In this document: in pieces, positions 19,009 through 39,620 of the stretch
Numbering within the stretch: position 1 is the stretch's first letter
Layout of the letters: the number at the start of each line of letters is the position of its first letter
DNA from: Patescibacteria group bacterium
GTDB lineage: Bacteria; Patescibacteriota; 4484-211
Assembly: GCA_018818265.1 (NCBI GenBank)
Contig: JAHISN010000036.1
Location: 1 to 42,106 of the forward strand
Length of the DNA: 42,106 bases
Direction of reading: 5' to 3'
Program-made: the position numbers and the translations under genes
The notes under the pieces: generated by a model
What the model was told of the DNA's origin: nothing
Database searches by the model: none
The model's input: only the letters and a program-made list of their open reading frames with translations

Positions 19009-21771
19009 ATGAATAAGCTAAAAATCGCTCTTGTTTCTCCCTATGTGTTTAGTGTGCCCGGAGGAGTACAAGAACACTGCAAAACACTACAAAAAGAGTT
19101 AATTAGTCGTGGCCATTCGGTAATAATTATCGCTCCCAAGCAATTTGGCAACCAGAACTTCCCCGAAAAGGAAGGTTTCCACTATTCTCACCCAGCTATC
19201 CCGATAAAAGCAAACAAAAGCGTATCCTGGCTCAGTTTGCCCGTTTCTCTACCAGAGACACAGCCTATCAAATCTTACTTAAGAAAACAAGATTTCGATA
19301 TCGTTCACATTCATGAGCCACTCGCCCCATTTATGAATTGGTCCATCCTGAAACACTCGAAAGCAAAAAATATAGGAACATTTCACAGCGCTCTAGTCTC
19401 TGAAGGAAAAATTAGCCCACTAATGACTATGCAAAAACCACTTGAACCATTCTTTCAAGAGAGATTACACGGGAGAATCGCCGTTTCTGATGTAGCATTA
19501 AGATCGTGGCGTAATTTCTTCAGACGCGGACAGGGTATAGTTATTCCAAACGGGATTCTTGCTAACGATTTCAACCCCGAGAGAATTAAACCATTTAAGA
19601 AATATCTCGACGGTAAAGTAAACATTCTGTACCTTGGCCGATTGGACCCTCGAAAGGGAGTCATCTACTTGGCGCAGGCATTTAAAATCTTGGAGGAACA
19701 ATTCGGCTCGCTAAGATTAATTATTGTAGGAAAAGGTACAGAATACGAACGTGTCCGCAATTATCTCTCCAATCACAATGCCTCAGAAATGATAATGCTG
19801 GACCATGTGAGTTATGAAGACAAACTCCGCTACTACGCCACCTGTGACATCTTTTGCTCACCGGCTATCACAGGAGAGAGTTTTGGCATTGTCCTCGTGG
19901 AAGCAATGGCGTCAGGAAAACCAATAGTTGCTTCTCGAAACCCCGGATTTGAATATTGTTTAAGAAACTACCCGGAAAAAGACCGGTTTCTCGTAGAACC
20001 GGCCAACCCAGAAGCTCTAGCACTTGCCCTCTCAGAATTGATAAAGCAAAAATCGTTAAGAAAAGCCCTGGGGAAATGGGGATTAGATGAAGCTAAAAAG
20101 TACAGCTGGACTGTGTTAGCTGATGAAATTCTAGAATATTATTCACACATCCTCCACCCCAACACCCATCAAAAACAGCCTACGGCCATCAAGGAACGGC
20201 CTGTCAAGACGAAACCAAAACCGCCGGCTAAATATAAACGCGCTGTATTCGTTTTTGTTGACGGAGCTCGTTTCGACGTTTTCTTAGACCTTTTCCAACA
20301 AGGAAAGCTACCAAACATTAAAAGGCACCTTGTTGCTAATGGCGGCATATATAAAGCCGTCAGTTCATTTCCTTCTGCTACCCTTACCTCTATCCTCCCA
20401 TTTATAACAGGCGTTTACCCCGGCAAGCTGGATATTTCGGGATTGCGCTGGTTCGATAAAAGAACTTTAAAAATGAGAAGTTATGTTGGACCTGGCGGAC
20501 TACTGTTTGCAAAAGACGTGGGCAAAAGAGTCAAAACACTATTTGATTTCTTCGAAAACTCAATTAGTGTCTTTGGCGTTCTGCCGAATAACAAGCAGAG
20601 CTTCTTAATAGATTTAACTTACGACATTCAACGCGTAATTGCTCACTTCTCCGGCAAATATGAACAGTTAGATCAGAAAATTCGCTCGCTCGTGCAACAA
20701 AAATTAAGAAAGCATGAATTCGATCTGCTGTTTATAGGTTTTCAAGCGATCGACCACCTCTCTCACATTGAATCACCTTTCTCAGACAGTGTTCTCAGAC
20801 TTTATGAGAATGTCGATGCTGCAGTAGGAGAAATTGCTGAACATTTGCAGAAAAAAAACCAACTTGAAGAAACTCTATTCATGATCATCAGCGATCACGG
20901 GTTAACAAAAACCGACGCGCAAAATCATATCGATTTGGACCATCATTTAAAGAGTTTTTTCCCTGGGATACAGCTGTTTAAAAACATTCCGTTTTTTTCC
21001 AACTTCACCTACGGACACAAATTCTACAGTGGGTTTCATCGACTTTCAATCGGCGCGCGAACAACAGGAAAAGAAGCGGTAAACATGGTCTCAGGAAACT
21101 CGATGAGTCAGTTATATTTCAAAAATTCGCCGCGCGGTGATTGGCAACCTGTTCTTTACGAAGATATGATGGACGACCATAAGCTAAAAAAACTTTACGA
21201 CTATCTGTTAAAGTTGCAAGGAATCGAATTCTTAATTTCTAAAATGAATGGCGGGAAAATACGAATTGACCGGCAGGACAAGACTGGAACGCTTAAAACC
21301 GGCCTTTTAAGTCATGATGGTAAAAAATTCTGGTACGAAAATATGAATGCTGGAGATCCATTTGGATATCAAAACTTAGAGGGAGAATTAAGTTTTAAAG
21401 AAATTTTGGAGAGAACGATTGATACAAAATATCCCGATGCGCTTGTCGGAATTTGGCAACTCTTTTTTTCCAAAAGGGCAGGCGACCTTATTGTAACTTC
21501 TTCTCCCGAATACGACTTGCGGAATCCAAAGTATGAGTGGCCGATAAACCCTCGCGCAACACACGGCTCTCTCGTCAACACACACACCCTAGTCCCTTTC
21601 ATCACAAACGCTAGGTGTTTACGGGGCAAATTATTTAACTATGCTGGCAACAACAACCAAAAAGACTTGACAAAAGGCATAAGGTCAGTTGATGTTTTCG
21701 CGATTTTACTAGAGGAATTGGGCAAGAAAATACCGTGGAGTTACAAGATTGATGGTAAATGTCCCGAATGA
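19009..21771 (+). CDS. Fusion protein: PimA-like GT4 glycosyltransferase (N) plus alkaline-phosphatase-superfamily type I phosphodiesterase/nucleotide-pyrophosphatase-like domain (C)
   Basis: N-terminal domain: KIALVSPYVFSVPGGVQEH and GESFGIVLVEAMASGKPIVAS (GT4 EX7E region). Pro/Lys linker around aa 383-410. C-terminal domain: VFVDGARFD, SFPSATLTSILPFITGVYPG, AIDHLSH, ISDHGL. Confidence 0.85.
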   Translation: MNKLKIALVSPYVFSVPGGVQEHCKTLQKELISRGHSVIIIAPKQFGNQNFPEKEGFHYSHPAIPIKANKSVSWLSLPVSLPETQPIKSYLRKQDFDIVHIHEPLAPFMNWSILKHSKAKNIGTFHSALVSEGKISPLMTMQKPLEPFFQERLHGRIAVSDVALRSWRNFFRRGQGIVIPNGILANDFNPERIKPFKKYLDGKVNILYLGRLDPRKGVIYLAQAFKILEEQFGSLRLIIVGKGTEYERVRNYLSNHNASEMIMLDHVSYEDKLRYYATCDIFCSPAITGESFGIVLVEAMASGKPIVASRNPGFEYCLRNYPEKDRFLVEPANPEALALALSELIKQKSLRKALGKWGLDEAKKYSWTVLADEILEYYSHILHPNTHQKQPTAIKERPVKTKPKPPAKYKRAVFVFVDGARFDVFLDLFQQGKLPNIKRHLVANGGIYKAVSSFPSATLTSILPFITGVYPGKLDISGLRWFDKRTLKMRSYVGPGGLLFAKDVGKRVKTLFDFFENSISVFGVLPNNKQSFLIDLTYDIQRVIAHFSGKYEQLDQKIRSLVQQKLRKHEFDLLFIGFQAIDHLSHIESPFSDSVLRLYENVDAAVGEIAEHLQKKNQLEETLFMIISDHGLTKTDAQNHIDLDHHLKSFFPGIQLFKNIPFFSNFTYGHKFYSGFHRLSIGARTTGKEAVNMVSGNSMSQLYFKNSPRGDWQPVLYEDMMDDHKLKKLYDYLLKLQGIEFLISKMNGGKIRIDRQDKTGTLKTGLLSHDGKKFWYENMNAGDPFGYQNLEGELSFKEILERTIDTKYPDALVGIWQLFFSKRAGDLIVTSSPEYDLRNPKYEWPINPRATHGSLVNTHTLVPFITNARCLRGKLFNYAGNNNQKDLTKGIRSVDVFAILLEELGKKIPWSYKIDGKCPE

Positions 21772-22457
21772 CAGCAACGTACTCACAAATGAAACTTCTA
21801 AAGAAAATTCAACCGACACAAGCATTAAAAGCCCTCTTTGTGATTGTAGTTCTCTTCTTAGCTTTACACTGGTTGATACCTATACTAACTTCTGATGAGT
21901 TCAGATCTTTTGTTGAGAAATTAGGCCCGTTCGGCCCGCTGGTGGTTATCACATACACTGTTCTTTCCCACGTACTTGCGCCCGTAGCTGGCACCCCAGG
22001 CATTCTGTTAAGCATCACCATGTTCGGTATCTACCGCACAATGTTGTATGTCTATCTAGGAAGTATGCTCAGCGCCAGCATTAATTTTTTTATTAGCCGG
22101 CACTTTGGCAGAAAGTGGGTAACTAAGCTTGCTGGCACAAGAACAATGAACGAAATTGACGAATTCGTCGAAGCTTCGGGAACACCCCTTTTAATTCTAA
22201 GCCGCGTGTTTGGATTCTCTTTGTTCGAAGTGGTCTCCTATGCAGTGGGATTTACTAATATGCCATTTAAAAAATACTTCGCCATCACGGCTGTATTCAG
22301 TTTGATTCCCAACATTGCCTTTACTTACATTTTTAGAAACATCGACATCACTTCGGGCAAGAGCCTTATTATTTGGCTAGTTACCCTCATCGGCACCGGG
22401 ATCCTCTTCGCCCTTTTCATAAAAAAGTATTCGAGAAAAAGCAAGAGAGAAAGCTGA
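21759..22457 (+). CDS. DedA/TVP38-TMEM64 (VTT domain) membrane protein
   Basis: Polytopic protein. VLSHVLAPVAGTPGILLSITMFG and FISRHFGRKWV are typical of the VTT domain. Overlaps the upstream gene; an alternative ATGA-coupled start is at 21768. Confidence 0.75.
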   Translation: MSRMTATYSQMKLLKKIQPTQALKALFVIVVLFLALHWLIPILTSDEFRSFVEKLGPFGPLVVITYTVLSHVLAPVAGTPGILLSITMFGIYRTMLYVYLGSMLSASINFFISRHFGRKWVTKLAGTRTMNEIDEFVEASGTPLLILSRVFGFSLFEVVSYAVGFTNMPFKKYFAITAVFSLIPNIAFTYIFRNIDITSGKSLIIWLVTLIGTGILFALFIKKYSRKSKRES

Positions 22458-22612
22458 AGCCTGCACTCGATAAGCTAATCCAAAGCAAACAGCAGCATCT
22501 GGCTACATTGCGCCTGCTCCGCAGGATACTCAACTAACCAAACCAAAAAAGAAGCCCTGGAAATACCCGGACTTCTCCTCTCATTTAGTCGCCTACTCCC
22601 TCCATCACTTAA

Positions 22613-22888
22613 TCATCTTTTTGTCTTAAATCCTTCAAATCTCTTTAAATCCTTGCTTTTGCGAACTTCCATTCGTCCCACCCGCGCCGATGGCGGGCCG
22701 TGGTGGCACCAATCGAGAAATTCGCTTAGCGCCGATTCCTCACCTTCTGCCTCAATATAGACCGAACCATCCGGTTCGTTGCGAACGAAACCGGTTACAC
22801 CCAACTCATTAGCTTTTTCGCAAGCCGCGACTCGAAAAAACACCCCCTGCACATGACCGTGGATTTTGATATTGAAATGTTTTCGCAT
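22613..22888 (-). CDS. acyP: Acylphosphatase
   Basis: IKIHGHVQGVFFRVAACEKANELGVTGFVRNEPDGSVYIEAEG. Start set at the ATG (MRKHF) rather than the TTG at 22915. Confidence 0.85.
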   Translation of the reverse strand: MRKHFNIKIHGHVQGVFFRVAACEKANELGVTGFVRNEPDGSVYIEAEGEESALSEFLDWCHHGPPSARVGRMEVRKSKDLKRFEGFKTKR

Positions 22889-22932
22889 AGAGTTAATATA
22901 GTTCCCGCAAAACAATTTTACCTAATTCCTTA

Positions 22933-23040
22933 TTGTAGCGGCTAGGCTTTTCCGCCAAAGGCGGATCAGCCTCTGGCTGAAGCCTAGCAACGGAAGGTCG
23001 TAATCCCACCTGACGCGGGTCTAAAGACCCGCCGCTACAA
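22933..23040. other. GC-rich multi-hairpin element (candidate structured RNA or repeat), upstream of acyP
   Basis: Closing stem ttgtagcggc / gccgctacaa. Inner stem taggctt / aagccta encloses hairpins tccgcc-aaa-ggcgga and tcagcc-tct-ggctga. Single-stranded cccacctgac. Hairpin gcgggtct-aa-agacccgc. Confidence 0.6.
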
Positions 23041-23184
23041 GCGGACCTCAACTAGGCGCCAATTAAAAATGTGGTGAGTTTGTTTTGCGGTCGCTATAAG
23101 TTATTGAGTTATTGAATACTGCGGCAGGCTCAAGGTGAACCTAATCGCGACTAATACAGATGGCATGGTACTGAACTCTGCTAT

Positions 23185-23234
23185 TTAAAAGCAGGGGCTG
23201 GGGGGTATTCTTGTTATTTGCCCCCCCCAGCCCC
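23185..23234 (-). terminator. GC-rich hairpin downstream of the 289-aa gene
   Basis: ggggctgggggg / ccccccagcccc 12-bp stem with a 17-nt loop. The minus strand continues tgctttta. Confidence 0.55.
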
Positions 23235-23252
23235 GGTGTGTTCAAACACTCT

Positions 23253-24122
23253 CTACAGCTTCTGCATCTCCCTCAACTTCCTTGAAGCTGTTCTGAGGTG
23301 AGTCCGTGCCGACTTGATATTCCCTCCTCGGATCGCTTTTTGAGCGGCCAAAAGTGCATTGGCCGCCTCAACCCGAGATTGCAAATAGGGTTTAAACTTT
23401 ATCGTGCCCAAATCGGAAACCAGTTGAGAAATTCTGCGAGTTGCTCCCCTGCCCTGGCCCTGACTACCTCTCAAGGTTCTGAACAAAGACGTGTTGAGCA
23501 TACTGTTCACCGCGCCAGTGGTCTGACGGATAACTTTTCGAATTCGTTCCTGCTCAATCTGCAGAGCTTTCTTGCGAGCGGCAATCTTGCCTCGGATTAT
23601 ACTGATTTGGTTCTCCAGACGCTGGCACAGATTACATACCGCCGCTCTAGCCATAATCGCCCGAGATGGCGGATTGGTGCGCCCCAGAGAATCTATCAGT
23701 GATTTTGCCTTATCAAAGTGCCCGCCCGCCCTTAGCTTCCATTCGTTCTGAAATGTGCCAAAGCGTTGGGCCAATCGGGCAAAATCTGTTTTGATTTGAT
23801 CTCGCTCTGCACCCGATAGCTCTTTCCACCTCCACAAACGCGCCTCAATATCATGAGCAGTAGAAATAAAAGCCGCTATTTGCAGAATTTCTCTCGCTTC
23901 ATATTTGCTCTCAATATGCTCCTGCATCCGGATAGCCGCCGGTAAATCTTCGACTATTTGAGAACCCAGTCTTCGCCACCACGAATGCGCGGTAGGAAAC
24001 CAGCGAGAAATAACGACCCGTCCATCACGGGCCGGCCTCACTCCCGCCGCCGCCAAAGACACAACGCCTCGACCACCCCTGCGCCGCCGTCGACGCGTAT
24101 CAATTACTACCTGCCTGCCCAT
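23253..24122 (-). CDS. Orphan Arg-rich, predicted all-alpha protein (289 aa) in a G+C-rich island
   Basis: GGGAGGG SD 7 nt upstream of the ATG. N-terminus is MGRQVVIDTRRRRRRGGRG, with a second RG patch RGSQGQGRGATRR. The rest has helical heptad-like composition. I recognise no family. Confidence 0.65.
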   Translation of the reverse strand: MGRQVVIDTRRRRRRGGRGVVSLAAAGVRPARDGRVVISRWFPTAHSWWRRLGSQIVEDLPAAIRMQEHIESKYEAREILQIAAFISTAHDIEARLWRWKELSGAERDQIKTDFARLAQRFGTFQNEWKLRAGGHFDKAKSLIDSLGRTNPPSRAIMARAAVCNLCQRLENQISIIRGKIAARKKALQIEQERIRKVIRQTTGAVNSMLNTSLFRTLRGSQGQGRGATRRISQLVSDLGTIKFKPYLQSRVEAANALLAAQKAIRGGNIKSARTHLRTASRKLREMQKL

Positions 24123-24177
24123 TTCTTTTCCCTCCCTTTTCTTATTTCTTAAAGAGCTAATTCATCACAACTACAAC

Positions 24178-24212
24178 CCCCGCGGCAGACGCCGCGGGGC
24201 TTTCCCTTTTCT
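24178..24212. terminator. Strong GC hairpin between the YibE/F-like gene end and the 289-aa gene start
   Basis: ccccgcggc-agac-gccgcgggg (9-bp stem) followed by ctttcccttttct on the plus strand. Lies just downstream of the minus-strand stop at 24216. Confidence 0.6.
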
Positions 24213-24215
24213 AAT

Positions 24216-25301
24216 CTAAGCCTCACGATCGGCCAATATAACCGCCAAGAAGGTCGTTATCGGCACCGCTAATATCAACCCAATACTTCCAACTAAGGTT
24301 CTCACAATTTCCTCGGCAATTATTTCGTAATTGACAACTTCACTCAACATACGGCCGCTGTCGGTAAATAGTAACAGAAGCGGCAAAGAAGCCCCAGCAT
24401 AAACCAAAACCAGGGTGTTAACCATTGAGGAAATGTGATCTCGGCCTACTTTCATCGCCCTCCAAAAAAGTCTCTTAGAATTTAACCGTGGGTTTACTTC
24501 TTTAAGATTAAAGACTACTGAGGACTGCGCAATGGTAATATCATCCAATACCCCCAGCGCCCCAATCATAATACCCGCCAAAACTAAACCTTTAATATTC
24601 ACTACCCCCTGCGTCGCTGTTTGCAAAAAGGCCGCCTCGTCGGAAGAGAATCCTGTTAATCTGGCAAAATCAACAAAGACCACACCCAAAATCCCGGTGA
24701 TAATCAAGGCTGCCAAAGTCGAAACCACAGCAACAGAAGTCTTCTTATTCACCCCGTGAGACAAATAAAAAGAGACCGGAATAATCAAAAATGAACCTAA
24801 AACTGTCACTAATAATGGATTAGAACCTTTGGAAATCTGCGGCAGAATAAGCAGGAAAATCACCAAGAAAGAAAACACCATTCCTAAAAGCGAAGCTCCG
24901 CCCCACCCGCGGGCAACTAAAACGGAAACTAAAACAAAAATTATAAACAACCATATCAATGCGCCGCGCCTTAAATACTCAGTAATAAAGCAAGTCTGCA
25001 TATTTTCGGAGTTAACTTCACAACTAACTAAAACCCTATCCCCTACCAAATACTGAGGCAAGTTGATAACCGGCACATGCCCACTCTCAATTTCAAGCGC
25101 CTCCCCTACCAAAGAGCCTTTAGTAACTTCTAATTTAAGCTTTTGGTAAAGACGGGGTTGTTGAAACTCTCCCGCCGACTCAATTGTTCGTTCTTCGAGA
25201 ACTTCAATGACTGTAGCTTCGAGAGTTTCGGAGGCGAGGACAGGGTGGGGAAAGAGCATTACAGCAATTAGAAATGTTGAAAGTATTATTTTTTGTTTCA
25301 T
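24216..25301 (-). CDS. YibE/F-like polytopic membrane protein
   Basis: Signal peptide, roughly 100-aa extracytoplasmic domain, then 6-7 TM helices. The family call rests on architecture only. Confidence 0.55.
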   Translation of the reverse strand: MKQKIILSTFLIAVMLFPHPVLASETLEATVIEVLEERTIESAGEFQQPRLYQKLKLEVTKGSLVGEALEIESGHVPVINLPQYLVGDRVLVSCEVNSENMQTCFITEYLRRGALIWLFIIFVLVSVLVARGWGGASLLGMVFSFLVIFLLILPQISKGSNPLLVTVLGSFLIIPVSFYLSHGVNKKTSVAVVSTLAALIITGILGVVFVDFARLTGFSSDEAAFLQTATQGVVNIKGLVLAGIMIGALGVLDDITIAQSSVVFNLKEVNPRLNSKRLFWRAMKVGRDHISSMVNTLVLVYAGASLPLLLLFTDSGRMLSEVVNYEIIAEEIVRTLVGSIGLILAVPITTFLAVILADREA

Positions 25302-25312
25302 TGAGCTCTAAA

Positions 25313-25343
25313 AATGGTTGAATGGTTGCATAGTTGCATAGCT
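25313..25343. repeat. Alliterative tandem 8-mers (aatggttg aatggttg catagttg catagct)
   Basis: Read directly from the sequence, immediately upstream of the YibE/F-like start. Confidence 0.8.
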
Positions 25344-25368
25344 ATAAGGGGCATAATTCGCGACTTAG

Positions 25369-25435
25369 TTGTAGTAGCAAACGACAAAACACAAACTCAA
25401 TCCACCTCAATCGCAGAATAAATTCTGCTAGTACA
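25369..25435. repeat. Member of the tgtagNNgc...ccacct...gcNNctaca element family
   Basis: ttgtagtagc (25369-25378), ccacctc, hairpin gcagaat-aa-attctgc (25413-25428), closing gctagtaca. Compare 41327-41494 and 22933-23040. Confidence 0.6.
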
Positions 25436-25464
25436 GGTAAATGCTTCCTGCTCATTTCGAACAT

Positions 25465-25746
25465 TCATTTTATTCTCTCAATCCTGATCGCCTTCCCCGC
25501 AATCAAACACTCTGCCACTTTCTTATACGCCCTATCCAGCGTACGCGCAAAAGTTGGCTGACTAATCTTCATTTTCTTCGCCGCCTCAATTTGCTCCAAA
25601 CCATCTACGTCGTGCAATTTAAGTGCTTCCAGTTCGTCGGGCAATAAAACAATCTCCTCTAAATGGCGGAGAGGGATTCCCTGCGGCTTAAAATAATGCA
25701 CGCAGGGCTTAAATCGTAAACAGCGGGGCTTTCTAGGTCTAGACAT
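25465..25746 (-). CDS. DUF134 (UPF0251) family HTH protein
   Basis: MSRPRKPRCLRFKPCVHYFKPQGIPL... plus a sigma-70 region-4-like HTH (EAAKKMKISQPTFARTLDRAYKKVA). Confidence 0.8.
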   Translation of the reverse strand: MSRPRKPRCLRFKPCVHYFKPQGIPLRHLEEIVLLPDELEALKLHDVDGLEQIEAAKKMKISQPTFARTLDRAYKKVAECLIAGKAIRIERIK

Positions 25747-25755
25747 AGCTTAAGT

Positions 25756-25784
25756 ATGATACAACAATTAGACAGGGACAGCAA
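25756..25784 (-). promoter_or_regulatory. Promoter TTGCTG-17-TATCAT, 9 nt from the DUF134 ATG
   Basis: Minus strand reads ttgctgtccctgtctaattgttgtatcatacttaagctATG. Confidence 0.5.
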
Positions 25785-25833
25785 ATGAAGTGATGACAGC
25801 GGGCAAAGTCTAATTGCGCCGCTGGTAATTAGG

Positions 25834-25905
25834 TCCGCCAGAGGCGGATTAATCCTGCCTCGCCGGCAGGCGGGTCCGCCTTCAGAAAAAGTGAAACTTT
25901 TTCTG
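25834..25905. repeat. Cluster of three GC-rich hairpins in a divergent intergenic region
   Basis: tccgcc-aga-ggcgga (25834-25848). cctgcc-tcgcc-ggcagg (25854-25870). cagaaaaag-tgaaa-ctttttctg (25883-25905). Confidence 0.75.
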
Positions 25906-25959
25906 GGTGTCATTGAATAACTAGGTAATTGGGTAACATGTGATACACTTAACCCTATC

Positions 25960-26273
25960 ATGATGACTCATACTGGGAAAATACCCACTTTCAAAACAAT
26001 TAAAGAAGAAGCCAAATTCTGGGACACTCACGACATCACCGACTACCTATCGGAGATGAAATCCGTGGAGGTAGAATTTGTTGTGCCGCGAGAAAAAAAA
26101 AAGAACTTCTTACTATCAGAATTCAATCTAAAGTAAAAGAAAAAATTAATAATTTAGCCCTGAAACACGGTGTCTCCACTTCTACTCTAGCCAGAATGTG
26201 GCTGATCGAAAAACTGCGCGAGAAAACACCCCACGATCCCTCTCAATCTTTAGTTCTTCGCGATAAAGATTAA
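25960..26273 (+). pseudogene. BrnA/CopG-type antitoxin-like gene split by a frame change in an A10 run
   Basis: Frame 1: MMTHTGKIPTFKTIKEEAKFWDTHDITDYLSEMKSVEVEFVVPREKKK, stop at 26134-26136. The -1 frame continues ELLTIRIQSKVKEKINNLALKHGVSTSTLARMWLIEKLREK to 26273. A10 lies at 26093-26102. Both halves are below the ORF-track cutoff. Confidence 0.7.
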
Positions 26274-26371
26274 AACTTTGATTACCAGACATCTATCATT
26301 AGAATTAAAATTTGTTTCAAAATTAGTCATTCGTCATTAAAATTCACAACCTAATTCCCTACCTAATTACC

Positions 26372-26428
26372 GTCCGCCGAGACGGCGGACTAATTACCGC
26401 GACTCCCGCCAAATCGACTTGGCGGGAG
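26372..26428. repeat. Two GC-rich hairpins between the convergent brnA-like and DUF5320 genes (likely terminators)
   Basis: gtccgccg-aga-cggcggac (26372-26390). ctcccgccaa-atcgac-ttggcgggag (26403-26428). Flanked by taattacc words. Confidence 0.7.
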
Positions 26429-26442
26429 CGCAAGTTACCCAA

Positions 26443-26700
26443 TCACTTCTTCATCTCCTCCTCTTCCTTCTTCACCATCTCCAACTCTTCCTCTAATGCC
26501 TTGCGATAATCCGCAAGTTCCTCTTTAGTAGGACGAGGAGCAAATCGGCCGCCGAAAAGGCAGCCTAGTCCGCGCCGCATACCACGCCCTTGTCCCCTGC
26601 CCCATCCTTGTCCCCAGCCCATACCTCCACCGCAGGGGCCTCTACCCAAACCGGTGCCGGGACCTTGGCCTTGCGGACCTGTTCCATTTAAATTTGGCAT
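26443..26700 (-). CDS. DUF5320 family Gly/Arg-rich protein
   Basis: MPNLNGTGPQGQGPGTGLGRGPCGGG... followed by a C-terminal acidic coiled coil. Start moved to the ATG at 26700, with GAGGTGA SD 5 nt upstream; the track start at 26709 is a GTG inside that SD. Confidence 0.8.
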   Translation of the reverse strand: MPNLNGTGPQGQGPGTGLGRGPCGGGMGWGQGWGRGQGRGMRRGLGCLFGGRFAPRPTKEELADYRKALEEELEMVKKEEEEMKK

Positions 26701-26905
26701 ATTTATCACCTCTTTTCAATGACAGCCGGAAAAAACAAGTCGAAGACACAGTTTTTTCCGTTGCTAGAATTAACCCTCCGTAGCCCGCAGGGCGAAGGAG
26801 GGCTCAATGAGAACCGCCAAAGGCGGTTGTTCTATTGTTCAAATTAGCCACGTTTATCCCGATGTCCATCGGGATATTTCGTGGCTTTTACCACATTCTG
26901 AATAC
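26701..26905 (-). promoter_or_regulatory. Roughly 200-nt four-hairpin 5' leader of the DUF5320 gene (candidate cis-regulatory RNA)
   Basis: Four hairpins lie between the predicted promoter and the ATG. (1) agccacg...cgtggct with inner atcccgat/atcgggat, 26846-26886. (2) aaccgcc-aaa-ggcggtt, 26813-26828. (3) ccctcc...ggaggg with inner gccc-gca-gggc, 26775-26802. (4) cggaaaaaac/gttttttccg, 26727-26760. Confidence 0.5.
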
Positions 26906-26911
26906 ACATTC

Positions 26912-26940
26912 ATCATATATATTCAAAACCCGTTTGTCAA
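26912..26940 (-). promoter_or_regulatory. Sigma70-type promoter TTGACA-17-TATGAT (minus strand)
   Basis: Minus strand reads ttgacaaacgggttttgaatatatatgat. Confidence 0.6.
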
Positions 26941-26987
26941 GTTGGAAAAATAACTTGGAAGTATGCTCACCGCCCTGCCAGCAAAAT

Positions 26988-27016
26988 TTGACAAATTCAT
27001 TTTCTTACGCTAAGAT
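26988..27016 (+). promoter_or_regulatory. Sigma70-type promoter TTGACA-17-TAAGAT (plus strand)
   Basis: ttgacaaattcattttcttacgctaagat. Downstream: GGAGG at 27036-27040 and GTG start at 27047. Confidence 0.6.
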
Positions 27017-27046
27017 ACGGTAAAAATAAAATCGCGGAGGCAAAAG

Positions 27047-27319
27047 GTGGCGAGAAAGAAACGAAAGTCAAGGTATCGGAAAACCCACAAATTAGAAGTA
27101 ACACTGCGACTGGGAGAAGACTACAAGAATGTAATCATAGAAACAGTGAAAGGCCTTCACCATAACAGGAGCAGCACATTACCTCACACCGCTTTTGTTC
27201 CACGGGGAACGTTACTTCAGCAACGAATCACCGTAGACCTTGGGGGTGGGAAAAGCAGAATAGTCATAGTCGTCCCCAAGAGACGAATTAAACAGGGGCA
27301 AATAGAGCTGAGGTTGTAA
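27047..27319 (+). CDS. Small basic hypothetical protein (90 aa, GTG start)
   Basis: GGAGG SD 6 nt upstream. N-terminus is MARKKRKSRYRK. Own promoter and terminator. No family recognised. Confidence 0.6.
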   Translation: MARKKRKSRYRKTHKLEVTLRLGEDYKNVIIETVKGLHHNRSSTLPHTAFVPRGTLLQQRITVDLGGGKSRIVIVVPKRRIKQGQIELRL

Positions 27320-27337
27320 ACAATCCTCTTCTACACA

Positions 27338-27374
27338 AAGGCACGGCCACAACAGGCCGTGCCTTCTCTTTTTT
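27338..27374 (+). terminator. Rho-independent terminator
   Basis: aaggcacggcc-acaaca-ggccgtgcctt followed by ctctttttt. Confidence 0.8.
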
Positions 27375-27470
27375 GCCCCTTTCTCTCCTTCTCTTATCCA
27401 CCCCACCATTAATTCCGCGCCTGCGACTAATAAGTGGCATAAGCCCTGTTATTTGAACAAAGAGAATCTA

Positions 27471-27890
27471 TTACTCGAGATTACTGTATTCCCCCGGGGT
27501 TATCGTCTTTAGAGTCTTTACCTTCCTAAATTCTTTATCAAAAGTACAAAGAACAGCCTCTTTAGGAAGCTGGGTTGCAATAAGGCAATCGGCGAACTTT
27601 ATTTTGGTCTTTCGGTAAACTTTCAGCGCTTTTCTAAAATCCGTCTTCTCTATCAACGTCAAATTTCTGGTTTCCAAAATACACTCAATATCCTGCAAAA
27701 CTTTTTCTTGAGATATCTTTAAGAGTGAGGTTAAAACATAGTGCACTTCCAAAAGTACAATAGTAGAAGTGTAAGGCCTAAACCTGCCCGCTTCTGCTTC
27801 TATAAAGAAATCAACACACTCCTGATACTGCTCTTTTACATCGGCTAACAAGAACCTTAACCAGACATTGGTATCAATAAATATTTTCAT
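27471..27890 (-). CDS. vapC: PIN-domain toxin VapC
   Basis: MKIFIDTNVWLRFLL (first acidic residue motif). 139 aa. Directly downstream of an AbrB-type antitoxin. Confidence 0.85.
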   Translation of the reverse strand: MKIFIDTNVWLRFLLADVKEQYQECVDFFIEAEAGRFRPYTSTIVLLEVHYVLTSLLKISQEKVLQDIECILETRNLTLIEKTDFRKALKVYRKTKIKFADCLIATQLPKEAVLCTFDKEFRKVKTLKTITPGEYSNLE

Positions 27891-27902
27891 AACTCCTATA
27901 AT

Positions 27903-28139
27903 TTATAACCGGGAATAGTCAATTTGATCACGAACTGTCTCTAAGTTGAGCTTTTTCTTAGCCAAGGATTTATATTTCCCTCCTAGAGATAAAAGCGCGC
28001 TCTTCTGTGGGGTTATAATCAGCTTATCACCAGCTACCTCCAATCGGGCTTTAGACGATTGAGTCAAGCCCAGCTGTTCTCTAACGCGAGTAGGAACATA
28101 AATCTGCCATTGGGGGGTAATAGTTATTAACTGCGGCAT
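27903..28139 (-). CDS. vapB: AbrB/MazE/SpoVT-type antitoxin VapB
   Basis: QIYVPTRVREQLGL swapped-hairpin motif. 78 aa. Upstream partner of the PIN gene. Confidence 0.8.
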   Translation of the reverse strand: MPQLITITPQWQIYVPTRVREQLGLTQSSKARLEVAGDKLIITPQKSALLSLGGKYKSLAKKKLNLETVRDQIDYSRL

Positions 28140-28186: not shown

Positions 28187-31100
28187 TCACGGATTAATCG
28201 TAAACATCACTGCTGAACTGGAACCGAAGACATCGGGTTGATAAAGCTCGTAGGCACGAGACGGGAGGGCAGAAAATTTACCCGGCGTGGTAGCCCGCAT
28301 TTTATAAGTAAACTCATAAATGCCCTTAGATAAATAGGTTACAAACACTAGTACACGGTCATCCCGCATCTCCCGACTAGAGTACCAGACCGGCTGACGG
28401 TAATCGGCATTCTCCCTGAGTTTCTCAAAAGTGTCTTGGTTGGAAATATGCTCGGTGGCAAATGAGACGTTAATAGGATCAAACCCCGCCGGAAAATAAT
28501 CTTCTAAAACAACATGATGGCGATTTTCCGGTACCAACAGAGTCACTCGCGTTGTAATTGTCTCACCTGCATTTATTTCCTGCACCTCGCTACCATCCTG
28601 GTTAAAATAAACTCGCTCAACAACCATGCCCTCGTCTTTAGGTTCAATCAAGTCCAAAGGGGTATGTTTTTGCAAATTAAGATGGTAGTACAAGGTCCCT
28701 GCTCCTGTCTTTTTAAGCGCCACCGGCAGTTGGTCATCCTGCACCAGATGAGCTACCGAAACCATAACCGTATCTTGTTCCAATATTCGTTTCAGATCAA
28801 AATTTCCCTCAAGGACAGAACCTCCACCGACTTTAACTGAGTAGGTAAAATCTGTCTTTTCTGTTTCCATAGCATCAATATAATCAGCCAGCGACATTAG
28901 GACACTAATCGTATTTTGCGTCGTGCTCCAATAACCGTCTTTTTTTATCTCCAGCAGATAATTTAACGCAGGCTCAATAAGCGGGTGCTTAATGGAATTA
29001 GCAAGCAAAGCCTGAATCATTAAGGCAGATGACTTAGTAGTAGAAGAAAGAGTCTCGTAAGAAAATTCTTCCTCCCAGCGAGCGGTATTCGCTGTTCTCC
29101 TAACCAGTCCCGTTAAGTCATTAAACACTCTACCCTTACTGGATTCCAAAACCTGCCGATTATGTAGTGAATGGCCGGCAAGATTTTCCATTGCCAAGTA
29201 CAAATAAATCCGACTGGAAGCGGTAAATAGTGTCGGTTGAACAATATATCTACCATACAAATTACGCGCGTAAGATACTGAGCCTTCGTTAACTAAACTG
29301 TCAACATACAAGAGATAAGCCCGTACGCGAACACTATTTAGTTCGCTCTTAAGCTGTGTTAACGAATATTCTTTAGCTGATTCATAAACTTGCCGATCAA
29401 TATTTGCGCCTGATTCCTGAACTTCATGCAGTCCCTGCAGAACATAGGCCGACAAGTATGCATTGGATGCGTTATCACCCGGCCAGTACGACCAGCCGCC
29501 ATCGACTCGCTGAGACGTATAGAGTTTTTGCAGTGAAGTAGAAATAATGCTGTCGGCATAATAAGTCTCGGTCAAAACATTAGTCCCTAACTTTTCATTC
29601 AAGCTCTGATTTAGTAGCGCCGCCAGCATCTTAGTAACAATTTGCTCCACACAATCATAAGAAAACCCCAAAGCATAATCCATTCCGCCTTCCAACTGAT
29701 TCAAAAGAGAAGCAGAAACATTTATTGACAACTCGGCCAAGCCGGCCGCACCCTCGGCCAAATCATCCTCCTCCCCAGCAAAAACCTCTACTGTTTCCGT
29801 AATCGAAGTCTTGGTATGCCCACCGGCAGACGTTGTCTCTACTGAGCTAGGGCGCTTAAGAGGCAGTGTCAATTCCAATCCATCAGTTAGACCACTCAGA
29901 CTGTCGGCTTGATAGGTAATCTTCGCCTCAGTGCCCCTTGAAATTTTCGCGGGCCAGTATAGCCTTGCCGAAGCATTAGGTTCTATAGAAACTGTTCTTA
30001 AAGTATTCTTTTCGACAAACTCAAATCCTTCGGCAGAAACGCTGGCATTCACCTGTTGACCAAAATCGGTCTGATTCTGAATCACCGCCCCCACATAAAC
30101 TTCATCTCCCCAAACCCCAAACCGCGGCAGGATCGGGCGAATATACAAATCTTCCGCCACTAAAATGTCTTTGGCCGCCGAACCGACACGGGTTTCAGCA
30201 TCCGAACCGACAAGCAAAAGGTTAAAAGTGGTTAAATTATCCGGCAGTTCAAATTTGCCTTCAGCCCTCCCCTCTTTATTTGTTCTTAAATTGGCTTCAA
30301 AGATGACTGTGTCCAGAAAGTTCTTGCGCGATGTGTCTCTCCTCGAGTCGTCAAAACCCGCACTGCCTGAGCCGCCCTTAGCCCCTAACCCCGCCCGCAC
30401 AATTAATTTCTCCAAAGAAGCAATTAGTGAGTGAGTGTTCTGAACTTGCAAATCTCTTTCAAAATAGAACTTTTGCAGGATATCTCCCAAATTAACATTA
30501 GAGAGAGAAAGGACCGCCTTATCTACTACCGCCAATGAAAAATCCGCTTCCACCGGTTGACCATCAGCATCCATAGCGGAAATTGAATACTCAACTGTCT
30601 CCTGCGGGCGATATCTTTCCTTATTGGTTTCTATGGCCAGCTCCAATTCCCGAGGCTTAATATCCACTAGTAGTTTGGTTAAGCCAATTTTAAAGTCCGG
30701 CGGGTTGAGAATTGAATTACCGGGTTTAACCGCCGTTAAAGAGACAAAAACATTAGGAACATAATTTTCTTTAATCTCTACAGTAAAGTCCTGAGAATTT
30801 CTAGGCAAATCAACCAGATGATAATCAAGCACATTTAGCCTCTCTATCGTCACTAACCCCTTGGCATCTTCAAAAGGAAGCGGGGCGAAAATACTGGCAC
30901 GTTCCCCCGCCTGATATTCACTTTTTTCCATCACTAGGTCAATACGGTCATGGTCTGCTTTTTTAAAAGAAATCGTCTCGTCATCAGCTGAAACCCAATG
31001 CGTCAACGAAGATTCCCATTGACGACCCTGAGCATCCTTGGTTTTGGCCTTAACAATGTAATATCCTGCTTTTTGTGGAATGAACGAAAAACTGCCCTCT

Positions 31101-34100
31101 CCAGAAGTTCCGGAAACAATTTGCCCTTGCTCAGTTAGAGTATCCACAGGCTCAGACTTGGTGTAGTACTGACCATCGTCACCCAATTCTTTCACATAAG
31201 TCCAAACCCTTTCGTAAACTTCCCAATTAACTTTCTGGCCAGCAATTCTTTGCTCATTAACGTTTAAAACAACCAAATCGAACTTTGATTCTAAATTTTT
31301 ATATCCGTAGTATTCGTGCGGCTTTATCCCCACCAGTCGCTCTCCGGCATACATTCGGAAATCAGCCTCATTTCCGGCAGTTTGATTGTTAACATCTTGT
31401 ACTCCCATGGCAACAACATATTCTAAAAGATTCCACCCTTCATCTTTCTCGGAATCTTTAACTAAGCTAAAACTCAGATCAAATTCCCCCTGCGAGCCGG
31501 TTCTGCCCTGTCCCTCCTCAGCATCAACAAAACTCGACGAATAACCAGAATAAGGATAAGAAAGGTAACGGGCTTGGTTAAAATAATAACCAATGTCTTG
31601 CGGCCAGGAATAATACCCGCCGCGCTTAGAAACTTCATAAGTTACCGGAGCATTGGCCACAGCGCCGCCTCCAAAGTATGAGGCGCTAAGCGAAACTTTA
31701 GCTGTGTCCCCAACAAGATATTTATCTCTATCAGTCTCAATAACAACCTGATAATCAGGTTTACGATACTCCTCAACGCGAAATGGTCGCCTAAAAACAT
31801 CCTCTCCGTACTTAACCTTTAGATAATATTCACCCATTGGCAAATCGTCGGCCAGACTGATTGAACCAGTAAAAGAACCGTAACCATCAACCAAAAGCGT
31901 CTGCCGAAAGATTTCTTCTTCGCCCAAAAACTTATACCCCTGACTTGCTACGACTTCCACTTCGGCGCCGGCTGGCGGCATGGCATAAACCACATCCTTC
32001 TCCAACCTTAAATAGCCCTTAAAAAAGACTTCCTGCCCTGGACGGTACAATGGACGGTCAAATGTCAAGAACACTTCCCGGCTTTCGCAGGAATCATAAC
32101 TTGATGAATAGACACTAAAATCATAATTGGCGATTCCATTATTAAACTCCCAGGTTACTAAAGAAACATCATCCTGCTTGCGGCCAATAGCAACAAATTT
32201 CTTATCGTCATAACCACTGCTGGTTTTAGGCCAGACAACATTTTCACGCATCACTCCATCAGCGTTAGTTTCGGCTTTTGTCAACAGTTCATTACCTATT
32301 GTGACCACCTCAATCTCCATATCGGAAACTGGCTCCGCCGTGTTAAAACTTGTTGCCCAAGTAAAAACCTGCTCTGGAGATACTTTTAGCAAGAGGCCGG
32401 TTTTAGAAAGAACCAAAATCAGATTATCATGTGCTCCCCCATCTACCCTCGCCTCCAGAAAATATATCCCCGGAAGAAACAGTTCGCCCTCTTTAGTAAT
32501 TTCGGAAACAACATTAAAAGGCACATCAGGCGTCATCCCAAAACTCTGTGACCATGTATGTATTTTTGAGTATTGGGTAAGATCCACGCTCTGCCAAATA
32601 GTTGAACGTTCAGAAGTACTCGTTCTTTCGTTTATTAGGGCCACCACCTGCGCATTAGTCAGTTCGTAGAGTTCATAGTCAATTTTTTCCACGTTAGTTA
32701 CCTTCGCCGCAACTCTGGGAACAACATCTGCGTTCTGAATAGCAATATATTTATTAACCAAGTTACTGGAAATAAGGCCAATTGTTTTGGGTAAGGGAGC
32801 TGTGGAAAATTGAATTGTGTATGTTTGCGGCAGTGAGCGCCCGTACAAATCTTTAACTGTCTGTGGAATAGTGATGGTATATTCTGTTGAAGCTTTCTGC
32901 CAAAAATAAAGTGTCGCCTTCCTGCCCCAACCGCTAACATTAAAGTCCGATTCTGGCAGAGGATTAACTTTAATCAGCTCCTCAATCTCCCCAGAATTCA
33001 TCGGCGACTTAAAAGTTAATTTAAAGGAGCCTCTCTCATAATTATCCTGACCCCAAAGAGTCTGCTTGTCATTAGGCGTAGTAAAAACTAGTCCCGGCAA
33101 GTCAGCTGTTTTAAAGTCCCAACCCAATTCCGCTTCTGAACCGTAATTACCCAATTTGCCCAACGCCCCGGAATTAAGCTGGGCATGATAAACAGTTAAT
33201 GGGTTAAGGTCCTGAATTGGTTCAAAAATGAACTCTTTATCCGAATCCCAAGAAAAATTAACCGCGACTTCCCCTCCGGCATCTTTTTCAAAAAGATCAA
33301 ATCTCTCTTCAACCGACTGCCTATTCATATCTTGAGTAAAAGTAATCATCCATTTTTGCCTCGGCCCTAAATCTTCAATGGTTTTTTCGTAGTTGTAAAT
33401 GCGAGAAAAGTAATCCTCTTTATCGTAAGACGAATATCGTTGATACGACAAATAATCCACTGCCGGACGCTGAGTAATAAAAGAAAAAGAATAATCCTCG
33501 CGAAAAATATCTCCCTGAGGCGAAACAATATCTTTGTCAATCTTCACCGTATATTTGGATGAAGGATTAAGTAATTGCGACGGTCTAAAAACATATGCCG
33601 ATGTTCCCATCCACTTGCCAACTCCATTAAGAGGCGGCTCGATACCTAGAATATTCTCTCTCTGTTCATTCTGGTCAGTCGTAGTTAGAGAAACCATCGG
33701 ACGGTCAAACATGACCGTGATTAGTGTATCCAAATTGCTGGTATCGAGCGGTGACGCAAATATTACCTTAGGGTCCCCCAAAGTAGTAAAAGAAAAGACA
33801 AAGTCCTCGCCAAGATTTTTTCCGTTCCTGCCCTTGGCGTTTTGATTTATTTGAACTGTGTAGGTAATGTTCTTTTCCAGTTTTTGTTGAGGCCTGAATA
33901 TTAATGACTGATTATTGTTCCATGTGAAATTACCGTCAGCTTGGGGCTGTATCTGAAAAGCGCCCTCTACAGATTCGCGGTTCATATCAATGTCAAAGGT
34001 AATCTCCACAACAGCTGTTGTTTCAACTTCAATCGACTCGGACGCGGGGAATACGGCAATAATATGAGGGATTTGGGTTATTTTCTGAACCTGGAGTGCT

Positions 34101-34381: not shown

Positions 34382-34491
34382 TCCCTGCCCATGTTAGTTT
34401 GTTAATTTGGTCCGCCAAGAGCAGGTAATCTTTAACTTTTAACTTTCAAACACGTAAAGGCTTCGGCAAGCTCAGCCCACGTGGCATGCTT

Positions 34492-36723: not shown

Positions 36724-36755
36724 TTAAACAAACAAGAAATCGAGAGACAAGGCGA

Positions 36756-36844
36756 CTGAGCGATTGAGTAATCAAGCAATCTAGTGCTCTAGTGACCGAG
36801 CGATTGGTCGCTCAGTACCTCAATCGCTCTGTACCTTGATCGCT
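36756..36844. repeat. Alliterative direct and inverted word repeats (gagcgattg / caatcgctc; gtacctYRatcgct x2)
   Basis: ctgagcgattgag (36756-36768), ccgagcgattgg (36796-36807), tcgctcag (36808-36815), cctcaatcgctc (36818-36829). Tandem gtacctcaatcgct / gtaccttgatcgct. Confidence 0.75.
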
Positions 36845-38251: not shown

Positions 38252-38626
38252 TCACTCGGGTTTCTTCTTGCCCCTGAGGGAAGCTGTGCTGGAACCCAAA
38301 ATTTTAGATATCTCCGTTACCTCATTAAGTAGAGGATTAATAACCTCAGCAGGAACTTTATTCGAATCTCTAAGAAGCCCGAGCCAAAATCTAGTTTCGT
38401 TAGCGGATTTCAAAGCATACAAGAGAAAATTAATAAAGTCTTTTGTAGAACAAGCCGCTTGCGCCTCCACAATATTAGCCCCAACACTACAAGCGCAACG
38501 CAAAAGCTGGTCGCCAAGTGTCCAAAAGACTCGCCGATTCGGGAAATTATCTACCAGCTTAATAACCTCCAAGGAAAAATTGTAACATCGCTTAATTAAC
38601 TTGCGAGCAAATTCCTTATTGTTCAT
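38252..38626 (-). CDS. Four-helix-bundle protein (23S rRNA intervening-sequence protein family, TIGR02436-like)
   Basis: FARKLIKRCYNFSLEVIKLVDNFP...GDQLLRCACSVGANIVEAQ...FINFLLYALKSANETRFWL is the characteristic pattern. Confidence 0.8.
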   Translation of the reverse strand: MNNKEFARKLIKRCYNFSLEVIKLVDNFPNRRVFWTLGDQLLRCACSVGANIVEAQAACSTKDFINFLLYALKSANETRFWLGLLRDSNKVPAEVINPLLNEVTEISKILGSSTASLRGKKKPE

Positions 38627-39398: not shown

Positions 39399-39620
39399 TC
39401 ACAATCTCTCAAATTCCTTCCGCGACACACCCATTTGTCTGATGATATTACGTAACGTTCCCACTCTTACTTCGCGGTGATGAGGAATCACACAGGTTTT
39501 TCTCGTTTCCTCGTTCCACCAAATTTCATGAGAACCTGACGTCTTTCTACGCAAAACAAAACCAGCCTTGCGTACTTTTTTAATAACTTCACGATAAGAT
39601 AAAAGTTTTAATTTACTCAT
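39399..39620 (-). CDS. hicA: HicA mRNA-interferase toxin
   Basis: 73 aa. REVIKKVRKAGFVLRRKTSGSHEIW pattern. ATGA overlap with hicB. Confidence 0.85.
   Translation of the reverse strand: MSKLKLLSYREVIKKVRKAGFVLRRKTSGSHEIWWNEETRKTCVIPHHREVRVGTLRNIIRQMGVSRKEFERL

Follow-up and report, generated by a model that had tools for sequence, protein, structure and literature searches.

The locus described here lies on a 42,106-nt stretch (positions 1 to 42,106) of contig JAHISN010000036.1, from the assembly GCA_018818265.1 of a Patescibacteria group bacterium. This whole stretch is called the window below. Within it, an interval of 4.5 kb (22905-27374, 10.6% of the sequence) carries three genes read on the minus strand, which encode a Gly/Arg-rich DUF5320 protein, a DUF134 helix-turn-helix protein and a YibE/F membrane protein, together with a frameshifted CopG/BrnA-type antitoxin gene, the genes of a 289-aa and a 90-aa protein, and five hairpin-containing blocks between the genes (Table 1). 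These blocks had been picked out by a first-pass annotation, made by a model from the sequence, which assigned the interval to a genome of roughly 40% G+C (the window has 42.7%) and proposed that the hairpins and the Arg/Gly-rich proteins among them form an RNA-protein module. As an alternative, it offered a DUF134/DUF5320 regulon insulated by hairpins resembling repetitive extragenic palindromes (REPs). Its descriptive part can largely be retained: the Arg/Gly tracts are present in the translations as claimed, the identities of the DUF134 and DUF5320 proteins are borne out by their Pfam scores, and the brnA-like antitoxin gene is indeed broken.

The window YibE/F protein is closest to proteins of Gottesmanbacteria, Microgenomates and other Patescibacteria metagenome-assembled genomes (MAGs), with 57-62% identity; the best value among 5.8 billion proteins searched is just 62%. 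Because its nearest relatives are Patescibacteria proteins at this distance, the source organism is, to judge by this protein, a bacterium of the candidate phyla radiation (CPR) without a close sequenced relative.

Folding and enrichment of the hairpin blocks

Folding energies were compared with those of dinucleotide shuffles on both strands, and z values are given as plus/minus strand. Four of the five blocks fold far beyond the shuffles: block 1 (22925-23050) with z of -6.0/-6.5, block 3 with -4.2/-4.8, block 4 with -7.5/-5.6 and block 5 with -3.9 to -7.7. Block 2 (25369-25435) is the exception. With 37% G+C and z of -1.2/-0.6, it is neither a GC-rich multi-hairpin element, as the first-pass annotation had it, nor significantly structured. 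Since the two strands of every block fold with nearly equal energy, the blocks are better described as DNA-level palindromes than as strand-specific RNA.

The interval is enriched in such structures. Perfect hairpins (stem of at least 7 bp, at least 67% GC) number nine in the window, seven of them inside the interval (binomial P = 4.5e-6), and all four copies of the motif CCGCC-N3-7-GGCGG lie there, 0.03 being expected. The enrichment is explained in part by the coding fraction, which is only 62% in the interval versus 86% in the remainder of the window. A sliding-window fold likewise highlights the blocks. Beyond the interval it marks a few further spots, namely terminators (7821-7980, 41541-41640) and a compound palindrome (36741-36840). 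The latter, located between a PBP1C-like gene and dnaB, is nested, has a z of about -4.5 on both strands and contains GAGCGATTG-type repeats; its sequence is unrelated to the GTAG elements described below.

Blocks 3, 4 and 5 contain recurring short modules. Block 3 lies between the DUF134 gene and the antitoxin remnant, and in addition to its GC-rich structure it holds an AT-rich 10-bp hairpin (25883-25905), with GGTAATTRGGT direct repeats on both sides of the block. Block 4 lies between the convergent antitoxin remnant and DUF5320 gene, where it could stop or stall transcription in both directions. Examples of hairpin sequences in blocks 3-5 are GCCACGTTTATCCCGATG and CTCCCGCCAAATCGACTTGGCGGGAG, and a module CGGAAAAAAC...GTTTTTTCCG is followed by GCTGTCATTGA. 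The AT-rich hairpin and GNTGTCATTGA, in the 3' part of block 3, resemble the beginning of block 5 in reverse complement, and blocks 3 and 5 have one 20-nt match. Block 1 and block 5 share the 13-mer CCGCCAAAGGCGG without change, and blocks 3 and 4 carry variants of it. Linkers of the CCTAATTMCC type occur seven times, all in the interval: six were found by a scan with one mismatch, and a seventh, the ATTGGGTAAC variant at 26434, by eye. Window-wide, the enrichment of this linker is not significant (nine matches versus 6.2 expected, six of the nine in the interval).

No known RNA accounts for these structures. The whole window gave no match in Rfam 15 at the gathering threshold, matches to 22400-27600 at E values up to 10 were of chance level only, and a search for tRNA and tmRNA genes found none. 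The whole interval had no match in phage and plasmid collections. Integron attC sites or a cluster of attC sites lacking integrase (CALIN) were considered and rejected, as the ends of the repeats described below, TGTAGYRGC/GCYRCTACA, do not on inspection fit the RYYYAAC/GTTRRRY core sites, gene orientations are mixed and the window holds no integrase. REPs with a CGTC tag were likewise discarded: CGTC is found only in 26370-26390, where it is part of a stem, and is missing from blocks 3 and 5.

Three hairpins that the first-pass annotation had not counted (23194-23234, 24175-24202 and 27338-27365) stand outside the blocks. They lie at gene ends and are probably of the terminator type; the one at 23194-23234 looks like a terminator of the 289-aa gene.

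GTAG-tagged repeats in the window and in metagenome contigs

Exact TGTAGYRGC heads with reverse-complement tails are present at only three sites of the window, 22934/23039, 25370/25435 and 41328/41493. They delimit three elements that I hereafter call A1 (block 1), A2 (block 2) and A3. The motif is exact at both ends of A1 and A3 but at only one end of A2, where the tag of the other end has mutated to GTAC. A3 lies outside the interval, between a 110-aa gene (terminator at 41549-41571) and hisS, and is antisense to both; the idea that it is a T-box upstream of hisS was dismissed on account of this orientation and of the missing Rfam match. The three elements align head to tail, A1 and A2 on the minus strand and A3 on the plus strand. 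All three elements of the 42-kb window are intergenic and between same-strand genes. R1, a covariance model built for the GTAG unit, re-finds the three window copies, with 17.5 bits for the left unit of A1, 39 bits for A2 (at 25412-25435) and 40.2 bits for A3.

An 11-bp perfect inverted repeat, CCGCAAAACAA (22905-22915)/TTGTTTTGCGG (23080-23090), encloses A1 and is missing around the copy of A1 found in the metagenome contig L072 (see below); from its sequence, an older hairpin may have stood upstream of the acylphosphatase gene and received A1 in its loop. A 17-nt match between 23076-23092 and 41203-41219 was put down to coincidence, the second site being inside the coding start of hisS.

Public metagenome contigs were scanned with the 22-mer TGTAGTAGCAGAATTYATTCTG, which was found in nine contigs; it had no match in viral contigs. 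Judged from their names alone, the nine contigs come from groundwater, some of them from the 0.1-um fraction. The units follow one layout, in which GTAG and a dinucleotide lead into a stem of 7 bp with G-C and C-G as closing pairs and a TY loop. The partner unit is inverted and has a different stem, and in the metagenome contigs the spacer between the two measures 0-60 nt and holds up to three extra hairpins. GTAG ends point outwards also in L067/L070 (with a 0-bp spacer), L065, L066, L072 and L073. When ten distinct units were aligned without gaps, every one of the 70 cells of the 7-bp stem was paired; double compensatory changes numbered 13, at three pairs, and no G-U pair occurred. R1 also finds units on which it had not been trained, in L027 (a locus from a GTDB MAG) and in L073.

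The most informative copy is that of L072. Positions 2555-2663 of this contig are 90% identical to A1 over 109 nt, and the identity is bounded exactly by the TGTAG/TGTAGCGGC start and the CTACAATA/GCCGCTACAATA end. All 11 differences fall in the central 20-nt hairpin, the 4-bp stem of which is kept by a U-A to A-U swap. The flanks of the two copies are unrelated and the contigs share no further DNA similarity; in neither contig can a target-site duplication be seen at A1. L072 carries at least five such elements within 7.4 kb, the genes around them being unrelated to the window genes, and in other contigs the neighbours of the elements are housekeeping genes, for example those of MreB, FtsK, RF-1 and RNase J. 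Units were also seen as head-to-tail tandems (L072 300-354) and as back-to-back elements 9 nt apart (L068 1117-1173); clusters therefore exist besides dimers. On these sequence grounds, A1, A2 and A3 can be classed as discrete GTAG-tagged, REP-type dimers that are also present in other metagenome contigs.

This architecture closely resembles that of the GTAG REPs and of REPINs (REP doublets mobilised by RAYT or TnpA-REP tyrosine transposases) of other bacteria (Di Nocera et al. 2013, PMC3733652; Bertels and Rainey 2011, PMC3116915). In the description given by the former paper, GTAG REPs have a terminal GTAG, sometimes a dinucleotide before the stem, stems of 6-13 bp and TY loops; they frequently form dimers with GTAG outside, including heterodimers with different stems, separated by spacers of 1-100 bp that are possibly structured; and they sit between same-strand or convergent genes, their presumed mobilisers being the REP-associated tyrosine transposases (RAYTs). 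A1-A3 share the sequence of GTAG, dinucleotide, 7-bp stem and TY loop, as well as the outward inverted pairs, heterodimers, structured spacers, same-strand intergenic sites and compensatory stem changes. The window family differs in its host, which belongs to the CPR/Microgenomates, in spacers with as many as three extra hairpins, and in that no RAYT was seen within the window or the flanking gene families listed below; its units are common to several contigs, one of them at the 90% identity given above. A full-text literature search found no description of REPs or RAYTs in Patescibacteria or CPR bacteria.

Two further classes of repeat are comparable. Bacterial interspersed mosaic elements (BIMEs) of Escherichia coli are likewise mosaic clusters of REP variants and short linkers between operon genes that can build larger compound structures (outlined in part in PMC3733652), and they are known to bind the integration host factor (IHF) or gyrase, but they have no sequence relation to the window elements, and blocks 3-5 lack the GTAG tag. 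Repeats resembling miniature inverted-repeat transposable elements (MITEs), such as the Correia elements of Neisseria and the pneumococcal BOX and RUP elements, are also short, non-coding, hairpin-forming and modular and insert in leaders and intergenic spacers, with possible changes in mRNA stability or new promoters as a result; the window family differs from them in that A1 shows no target-site duplication and that no matching transposase or insertion sequence is known.

A conserved operon with lineage-specific insertions

The three minus-strand genes were compared with 62 YibE/F loci fetched from species-representative genomes, the neighbours of which were identified by tblastn. The genes of DUF5320, DUF134 and YibE/F adjoin on one strand in 12-14 Microgenomates relatives, with gaps of 9-84 nt between DUF5320 and DUF134 and of a few tens of nt before YibE/F (overall range 9-110 nt). 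By contrast, the DUF5320-DUF134 gap of the window measures 696 nt and is filled by block 4, the broken antitoxin gene and block 3, and the DUF134-YibE/F gap of 163 nt contains block 2. When the loci of 14 relatives were scanned for perfect GC-rich hairpins, ten had none or one, L006 had two and L012 and L014 had seven or eight. A GC hairpin near the DUF134/YibE-F junction of L012 and L014 was considered as a counterpart of the window hairpins and rejected, as it is inside the YibE/F coding region and not comparable. Regions upstream of DUF5320 are short and mostly unstructured in the relatives (z mostly about 0), as against a z of -7.7 for the 250 nt upstream in the window. The operon is ancestral, and most relatives' loci are without GC-rich hairpins. 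Since the ancestral operon is compact and its gaps are longer in the window, the hairpin blocks are lineage-specific additions and not conserved companions of the operon proteins; blocks and accessory genes alike are insertions specific to the window lineage. The relatives share no intergenic similarity with the window and the nearest YibE/F is only 62% identical, so that a search for orthologous covariation in the intergenic blocks is impossible.

The promoter region of the operon supports the same conclusion for block 5. In 12 relatives, a TTGACA-N17-TATAAT promoter overlaps a palindrome, GAATANNTATTCA, located 18-45 nt ahead of the DUF5320 ATG. Each of 13 loci has a single copy of the palindrome TGAATANNTATTCA, which invariably adjoins DUF5320 or DUF134 on the upstream side (L003 5289-5302, L005 5175-5188, L035 5394-5407, and ten further loci). 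The window has the same arrangement; its promoter scores 11/12 in a promoter scan and its palindrome has no second copy in the window. Here, however, palindrome and ATG are 198 nt apart, and because the difference is filled by block 5, which occupies about 160 nt of the operon 5' leader between the conserved palindrome and the ribosome-binding site, block 5 is interpreted as an insertion. From its sequence, the promoter is a conserved one of sigma-70 type, and the overlapping palindrome TGAATANNTATTCA is a candidate operator of the uncharacterised DUF134 helix-turn-helix regulator. A literature search on DUF134 and DUF5320 gave nothing relevant among the papers listed, and to my knowledge a link of these two families to YibE/F and to the TGAATANNTATTCA palindrome has not been described. 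As in other pairs of DUF134 (UPF0251) and DUF5320 genes, both members are above the Pfam thresholds and adjoin in relatives; the window pair differs in being split by about 0.7 kb, and the link with YibE/F and the palindrome was seen only in the fetched loci.

A word-seeded search with the 289-aa protein retrieved only the protein itself, whereas an exhaustive search brought up 78 remote homologues, two of them 44% identical to it and the others 22-37%. Members of this family are 165-641 aa long, most of them 290-420, several with an extra N-terminal domain, and they share the motifs AIRMQDHIL, CRNEFK, KDSLGRxNPGAxAART and IAxRKExL. An AlphaFold (AF2) model of the window protein is confident (predicted local distance difference test, pLDDT, 90.7; predicted template modelling score, pTM, 0.81); in it, a long helical bundle comes after a small beta unit at the N-terminus. 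Foldseek gave no significant match to this model in PDB or in BFVD, a set of viral predicted structures. The sequence has no relative in Pfam, NCBIfam, PHROG or the PDB sequences. The ORF is a real gene with a good ribosome-binding site, and its product belongs to an uncharacterised helical family. Its G+C content is 52%, versus 42.7% for the window. One of its RG tracts is in the non-conserved N-terminus and the other in a variable loop of the family. Synteny of the 289-aa gene with DUF134/DUF5320 had been set beforehand as a check, and it is missing: in the four homologue neighbourhoods that could be read, none adjoins DUF134, DUF5320 or YibE/F (two are beside a small GIY-YIG ORF and one is near a large serine recombinase), and the relatives' operon loci contain no homologue of the 289-aa or the 90-aa protein. 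For the 90-aa protein, no homologue, family or PDB-sequence relative was found at all. The Gly/Arg tract of DUF5320, on the other hand, is a feature of its family and is located within the Pfam profile.

The antitoxin gene begins with a CopG/BrnA-type N-terminus (33.9 bits, Pfam cut-off 28). Its frame breaks at a run of ten A (26093-26102) and continues in another frame to 26273. The gene may truly be a pseudogene, the run may be phase-variable, or the frameshift may come from an error of assembly; L002, the second contig carrying the region, ends before the run. No BrnT toxin ORF is present beside the antitoxin gene. An intact type II BrnT/BrnA system was therefore rejected, the frame being broken and the adjacent toxin missing.

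Table 1. Positions of genes, hairpins and repeat elements in the window (ordered by coordinate)
Feature	Position	Strand	Description
Acylphosphatase gene	22613-22888	-	
A1 (block 1)	22934-23039	-	TGTAGCGGC...GCCGCTACA; inverted pair of GTAG palindromes, GTAG outwards, small spacer hairpin
Gene-end hairpin	23194-23234	-	12-bp GC stem, 19 nt past the stop of the 289-aa gene, then UGCUUUUAAAU; z -4.1
289-aa protein gene	23253-24122	-	Ribosome-binding site AGGGAGGG; accessory, outside the conserved operon
Gene-end hairpin	24175-24202		GC stem of 9-12 bp, 14 nt past the YibE/F stop codon; z -4.2
YibE/F membrane protein gene	24216-25301	-	Pfam YibE_F, 248.7 bits; operon gene 3; DUF134-adjacent in relatives
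A2 (block 2)	25370-25435	-	Decayed dimer, aligns with A1 and A3; left unit intact with tag GTAC; right unit only head GTAGTAGC
DUF134 helix-turn-helix protein gene	25465-25746	-	66.9 bits (Pfam cut-off 27); operon gene 2; relatives 49-78% identical
Block 3	25824-25937		CCGCC-AGA-GGCGG hairpin overlapping a nested GGCGGA...TCCGCC / CCTGCC...GGCAGG structure
CopG/BrnA-type antitoxin gene, frameshifted	25960-26273	+	Antisense to the operon
Block 4	26350-26444		GC hairpins 26372-26390 and 26403-26428, CTAATTACC-type linkers
DUF5320 Gly/Arg-rich protein gene	26443-26709	-	49.2 bits (Pfam cut-off 27); operon gene 1; ATG at 26700 gives 85 aa
Block 5	26727-26885	-	Four hairpins: 26847-26885, 26812-26828, 26774-26802, 26727-26760
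Operon promoter and palindrome	26899-26940	-	TTGACA 26940-26935, 17 nt, TATGAT 26917-26912, overlapping TGAATGTGTATTCA 26912-26899
90-aa orphan protein gene	27047-27319 (ORF)	+	Whole unit 26988-27374: promoter TTGACA-17-TAAGAT at 26988-27016, GGAGG ribosome-binding site, ORF, terminator hairpin
Gene-end hairpin	27338-27365	+	After the stop of the 90-aa gene; clear T-run to 27374
PIN and AbrB gene pair	27471-28139	-	
A3	41328-41493	+	TGTAGTAGC...GCTACTACA, 166 nt; several internal hairpins; z -2.6/-4.4

Some neighbouring genes of the window deserve mention. A 2064-aa protein of the alpha-2-macroglobulin type adjoins a PBP1C-type transglycosylase/transpeptidase with a BiPBP_C domain (28187-36723, minus strand); this pairing is familiar from other bacteria and is seen here in a CPR genome. 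A 920-aa protein (19009-21771, plus strand) is a fusion of a GT4 glycosyltransferase with a domain of the phosphodiesterase/alkaline-phosphatase type, and its gene overlaps the start of a VTT/DedA membrane protein gene. The segment 38252-39898 (minus strand) contains a gene for a protein of the 23S rRNA intervening-sequence type (38252-38626) and a HicA/HicB-type pair (39399-39898). Several toxin-antitoxin modules are thus present in the window, namely the HicA/HicB-type pair, the PIN-AbrB pair and the dead antitoxin.

Origin and possible effects of the hairpin blocks

The explanation to which I assign the highest probability, about 0.6, is that REP-type palindromic repeats, as well as a few accessory genes, have colonised an ancestral operon in the window lineage. 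A1, A2 and A3 are, on this view, inverted GTAG REP pairs which, with their spacer hairpins, make up a REPIN/BIME-like mosaic. Block 5 would be an insertion of four palindromes, about 160 nt long, in the operon 5' leader, and blocks 3 and 4 would bracket an insertion of about 0.6-0.7 kb that contains the dead BrnA/CopG antitoxin gene and parts DUF5320 from DUF134. Blocks 3-5 are presumably mosaic relatives of the same palindrome pool. As to mechanism, GTAG units may fold as single-stranded DNA hairpins that a Y1/HUH (RAYT-like) transposase, with its gene in another part of the genome, would copy. Transcribed hairpins may influence the mRNA passively, by terminating some transcripts, shielding a 3' or 5' end, or altering access to the ribosome-binding site. 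The first-pass alternative is in essence borne out: REP-like hairpins do accompany the DUF134/DUF5320 genes, in the form of the GTAG dimers of blocks 1 and 2 and the leader insertion of block 5, while an insulating role for them would be hypothetical.

Several observations weigh against colonisation by REP-type repeats. No RAYT/Y1 transposase was found in the 42-kb window, nor is there one among the best 25 of the 49 families formed by 50 element-flanking ORFs in other contigs. The aligned units were chosen by eye beside GTAG tags, which possibly flatters the pairing statistics. Blocks 3, 4 and 5 match neither the R1 model of the GTAG unit nor any other fetched sequence, the nine repeat-bearing metagenome loci included, except for the 13-mer CCGCCAAAGGCGG; their kinship to the repeats rests on short modules (the CCGCC...GGCGG core, the CCTAATTMCC linkers and the 20-nt match between blocks 3 and 5). 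Finally, the full conservation of the A1 arms between two contigs and the compensatory swap in its central stem would also fit selection for an RNA or protein-binding function.

This last point leads to the main rival, which is co-option of the elements, above all of block 5 and the highly conserved A1, as cis-regulatory or small RNA. Block 5 would then be a selected regulatory leader, acting by attenuation or on stability or translation, and A1 and A3 would be small structured RNA genes or protein-binding sites conserved across the CPR. Block 5 is indeed downstream of a strong, conserved promoter and should be part of a transcribed leader of about 200 nt; the GGCGG of block 3 can pair with either of two CCGCC copies, in a mutually exclusive manner; the arms of A1 are 100% identical in the other contig; and the stem of the REP unit has the 13 compensatory changes described above. 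Nevertheless, the leader hairpins are missing in every relative that has the same promoter and operon, Rfam yields nothing even at relaxed E values, both strands fold equally and G-U pairs are missing. Moreover, the orientation of the elements with respect to flanking genes is inconstant (A3 is antisense, A1 and A2 are sense), A2 is decaying, and in other contigs the elements stand beside unrelated housekeeping genes. I regard this explanation as unlikely, although it is the one to be taken most seriously after REP-type colonisation. It is also doubtful, and rather improbable, that the blocks mark the borders or remnants of one or two larger mobile cassettes instead of being REP-type repeats that spread independently; a toxin-antitoxin cassette bearing terminal inverted repeats could, for instance, have entered between DUF5320 and DUF134. 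Blocks 3 and 4 do flank the antitoxin remnant with inverted GGTAATTRGGTAAC-type motifs, ATTGGGTAAC at 25928-25937 recurring as its reverse complement at 26434-26443, and both the G+C content of the 289-aa gene and the serine recombinase near one of its homologues would suit a cassette. A 10-mer inverted match in some 700 nt is, however, expected about 0.2 times by chance (own estimate), the window contains no transposase, integrase or toxin gene, blocks 1, 2 and 5 are away from the insertion borders, and A1 has exact boundaries of its own in another contig.

Two further readings fare worse. Ordinary intrinsic terminators, in a gene-dense region with many short transcription units, would account well for the gene-end hairpins: a GC stem-loop after a stop codon is followed by a U-run at 27338-27374, a pattern that 23194-23234 fits in part, the latter hairpin and that at 24175-24202 are rightly placed just past stop codons, block 4 lies between convergent genes, and similar terminator hairpins exist at 7879 and 41549. 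For the blocks themselves this is very unlikely to hold, given that blocks 3 and 5 are between divergent genes and downstream of promoters instead of after genes, that blocks 1, 3 and 5 group three or four hairpins each, mostly without U-tracts and partly upstream of genes, and that A1-A3 form a repeat family with exact boundaries. Least credible of all is the RNA-protein module of the first-pass annotation, in which hairpin RNAs would be bound by the RG-rich DUF5320, 289-aa and 90-aa proteins. RG/RGG tracts can bind RNA, genes and hairpins are physically close, and the Gly/Arg tract is a family feature of DUF5320. Yet DUF5320 and DUF134 stay together in relatives, most of whose loci have no GC-rich hairpins; the 289-aa family lives apart from them in the four contexts read and does not conserve its RG tracts; no homologue is known for the 90-aa protein; and the same GTAG elements are found elsewhere beside unrelated housekeeping genes. 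Hairpins and RG-rich proteins do not travel together; they are neighbours, not partners.

Colonisation by REP-type repeats being the preferred explanation, a bolder version of it can be entertained as a long shot, namely that the GTAG-bounded, modular multi-hairpin elements form one family that still moves and passes between CPR genomes, possibly by means of an unrecognised enzyme, and that their insertions in the 5' leader and between the genes have functionally rewired the DUF134-controlled operon. Such rewiring may consist, for example, in the uncoupling of DUF5320 from DUF134-YibE/F or in added RNA-level control.

Perhaps more useful are two by-products of the analysis. The conserved promoter and its palindrome provide a testable operator candidate for the DUF134 regulator family, and the 289-aa protein represents a confidently modelled helical family without a known structural relative. 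As for the repeats, REP/REPIN-type elements are best known from Proteobacteria and a few other phyla. If their REPIN-like mobility is true, such a system would operate in tiny, supposedly repeat-poor CPR genomes; if confirmed genome-wide, the elements would be a marker for strain typing and a lead to the responsible CPR transposase. GTAG elements in CPR bacteria would show that very small, symbiont-type genomes tolerate, or suffer, REP-like invasion.

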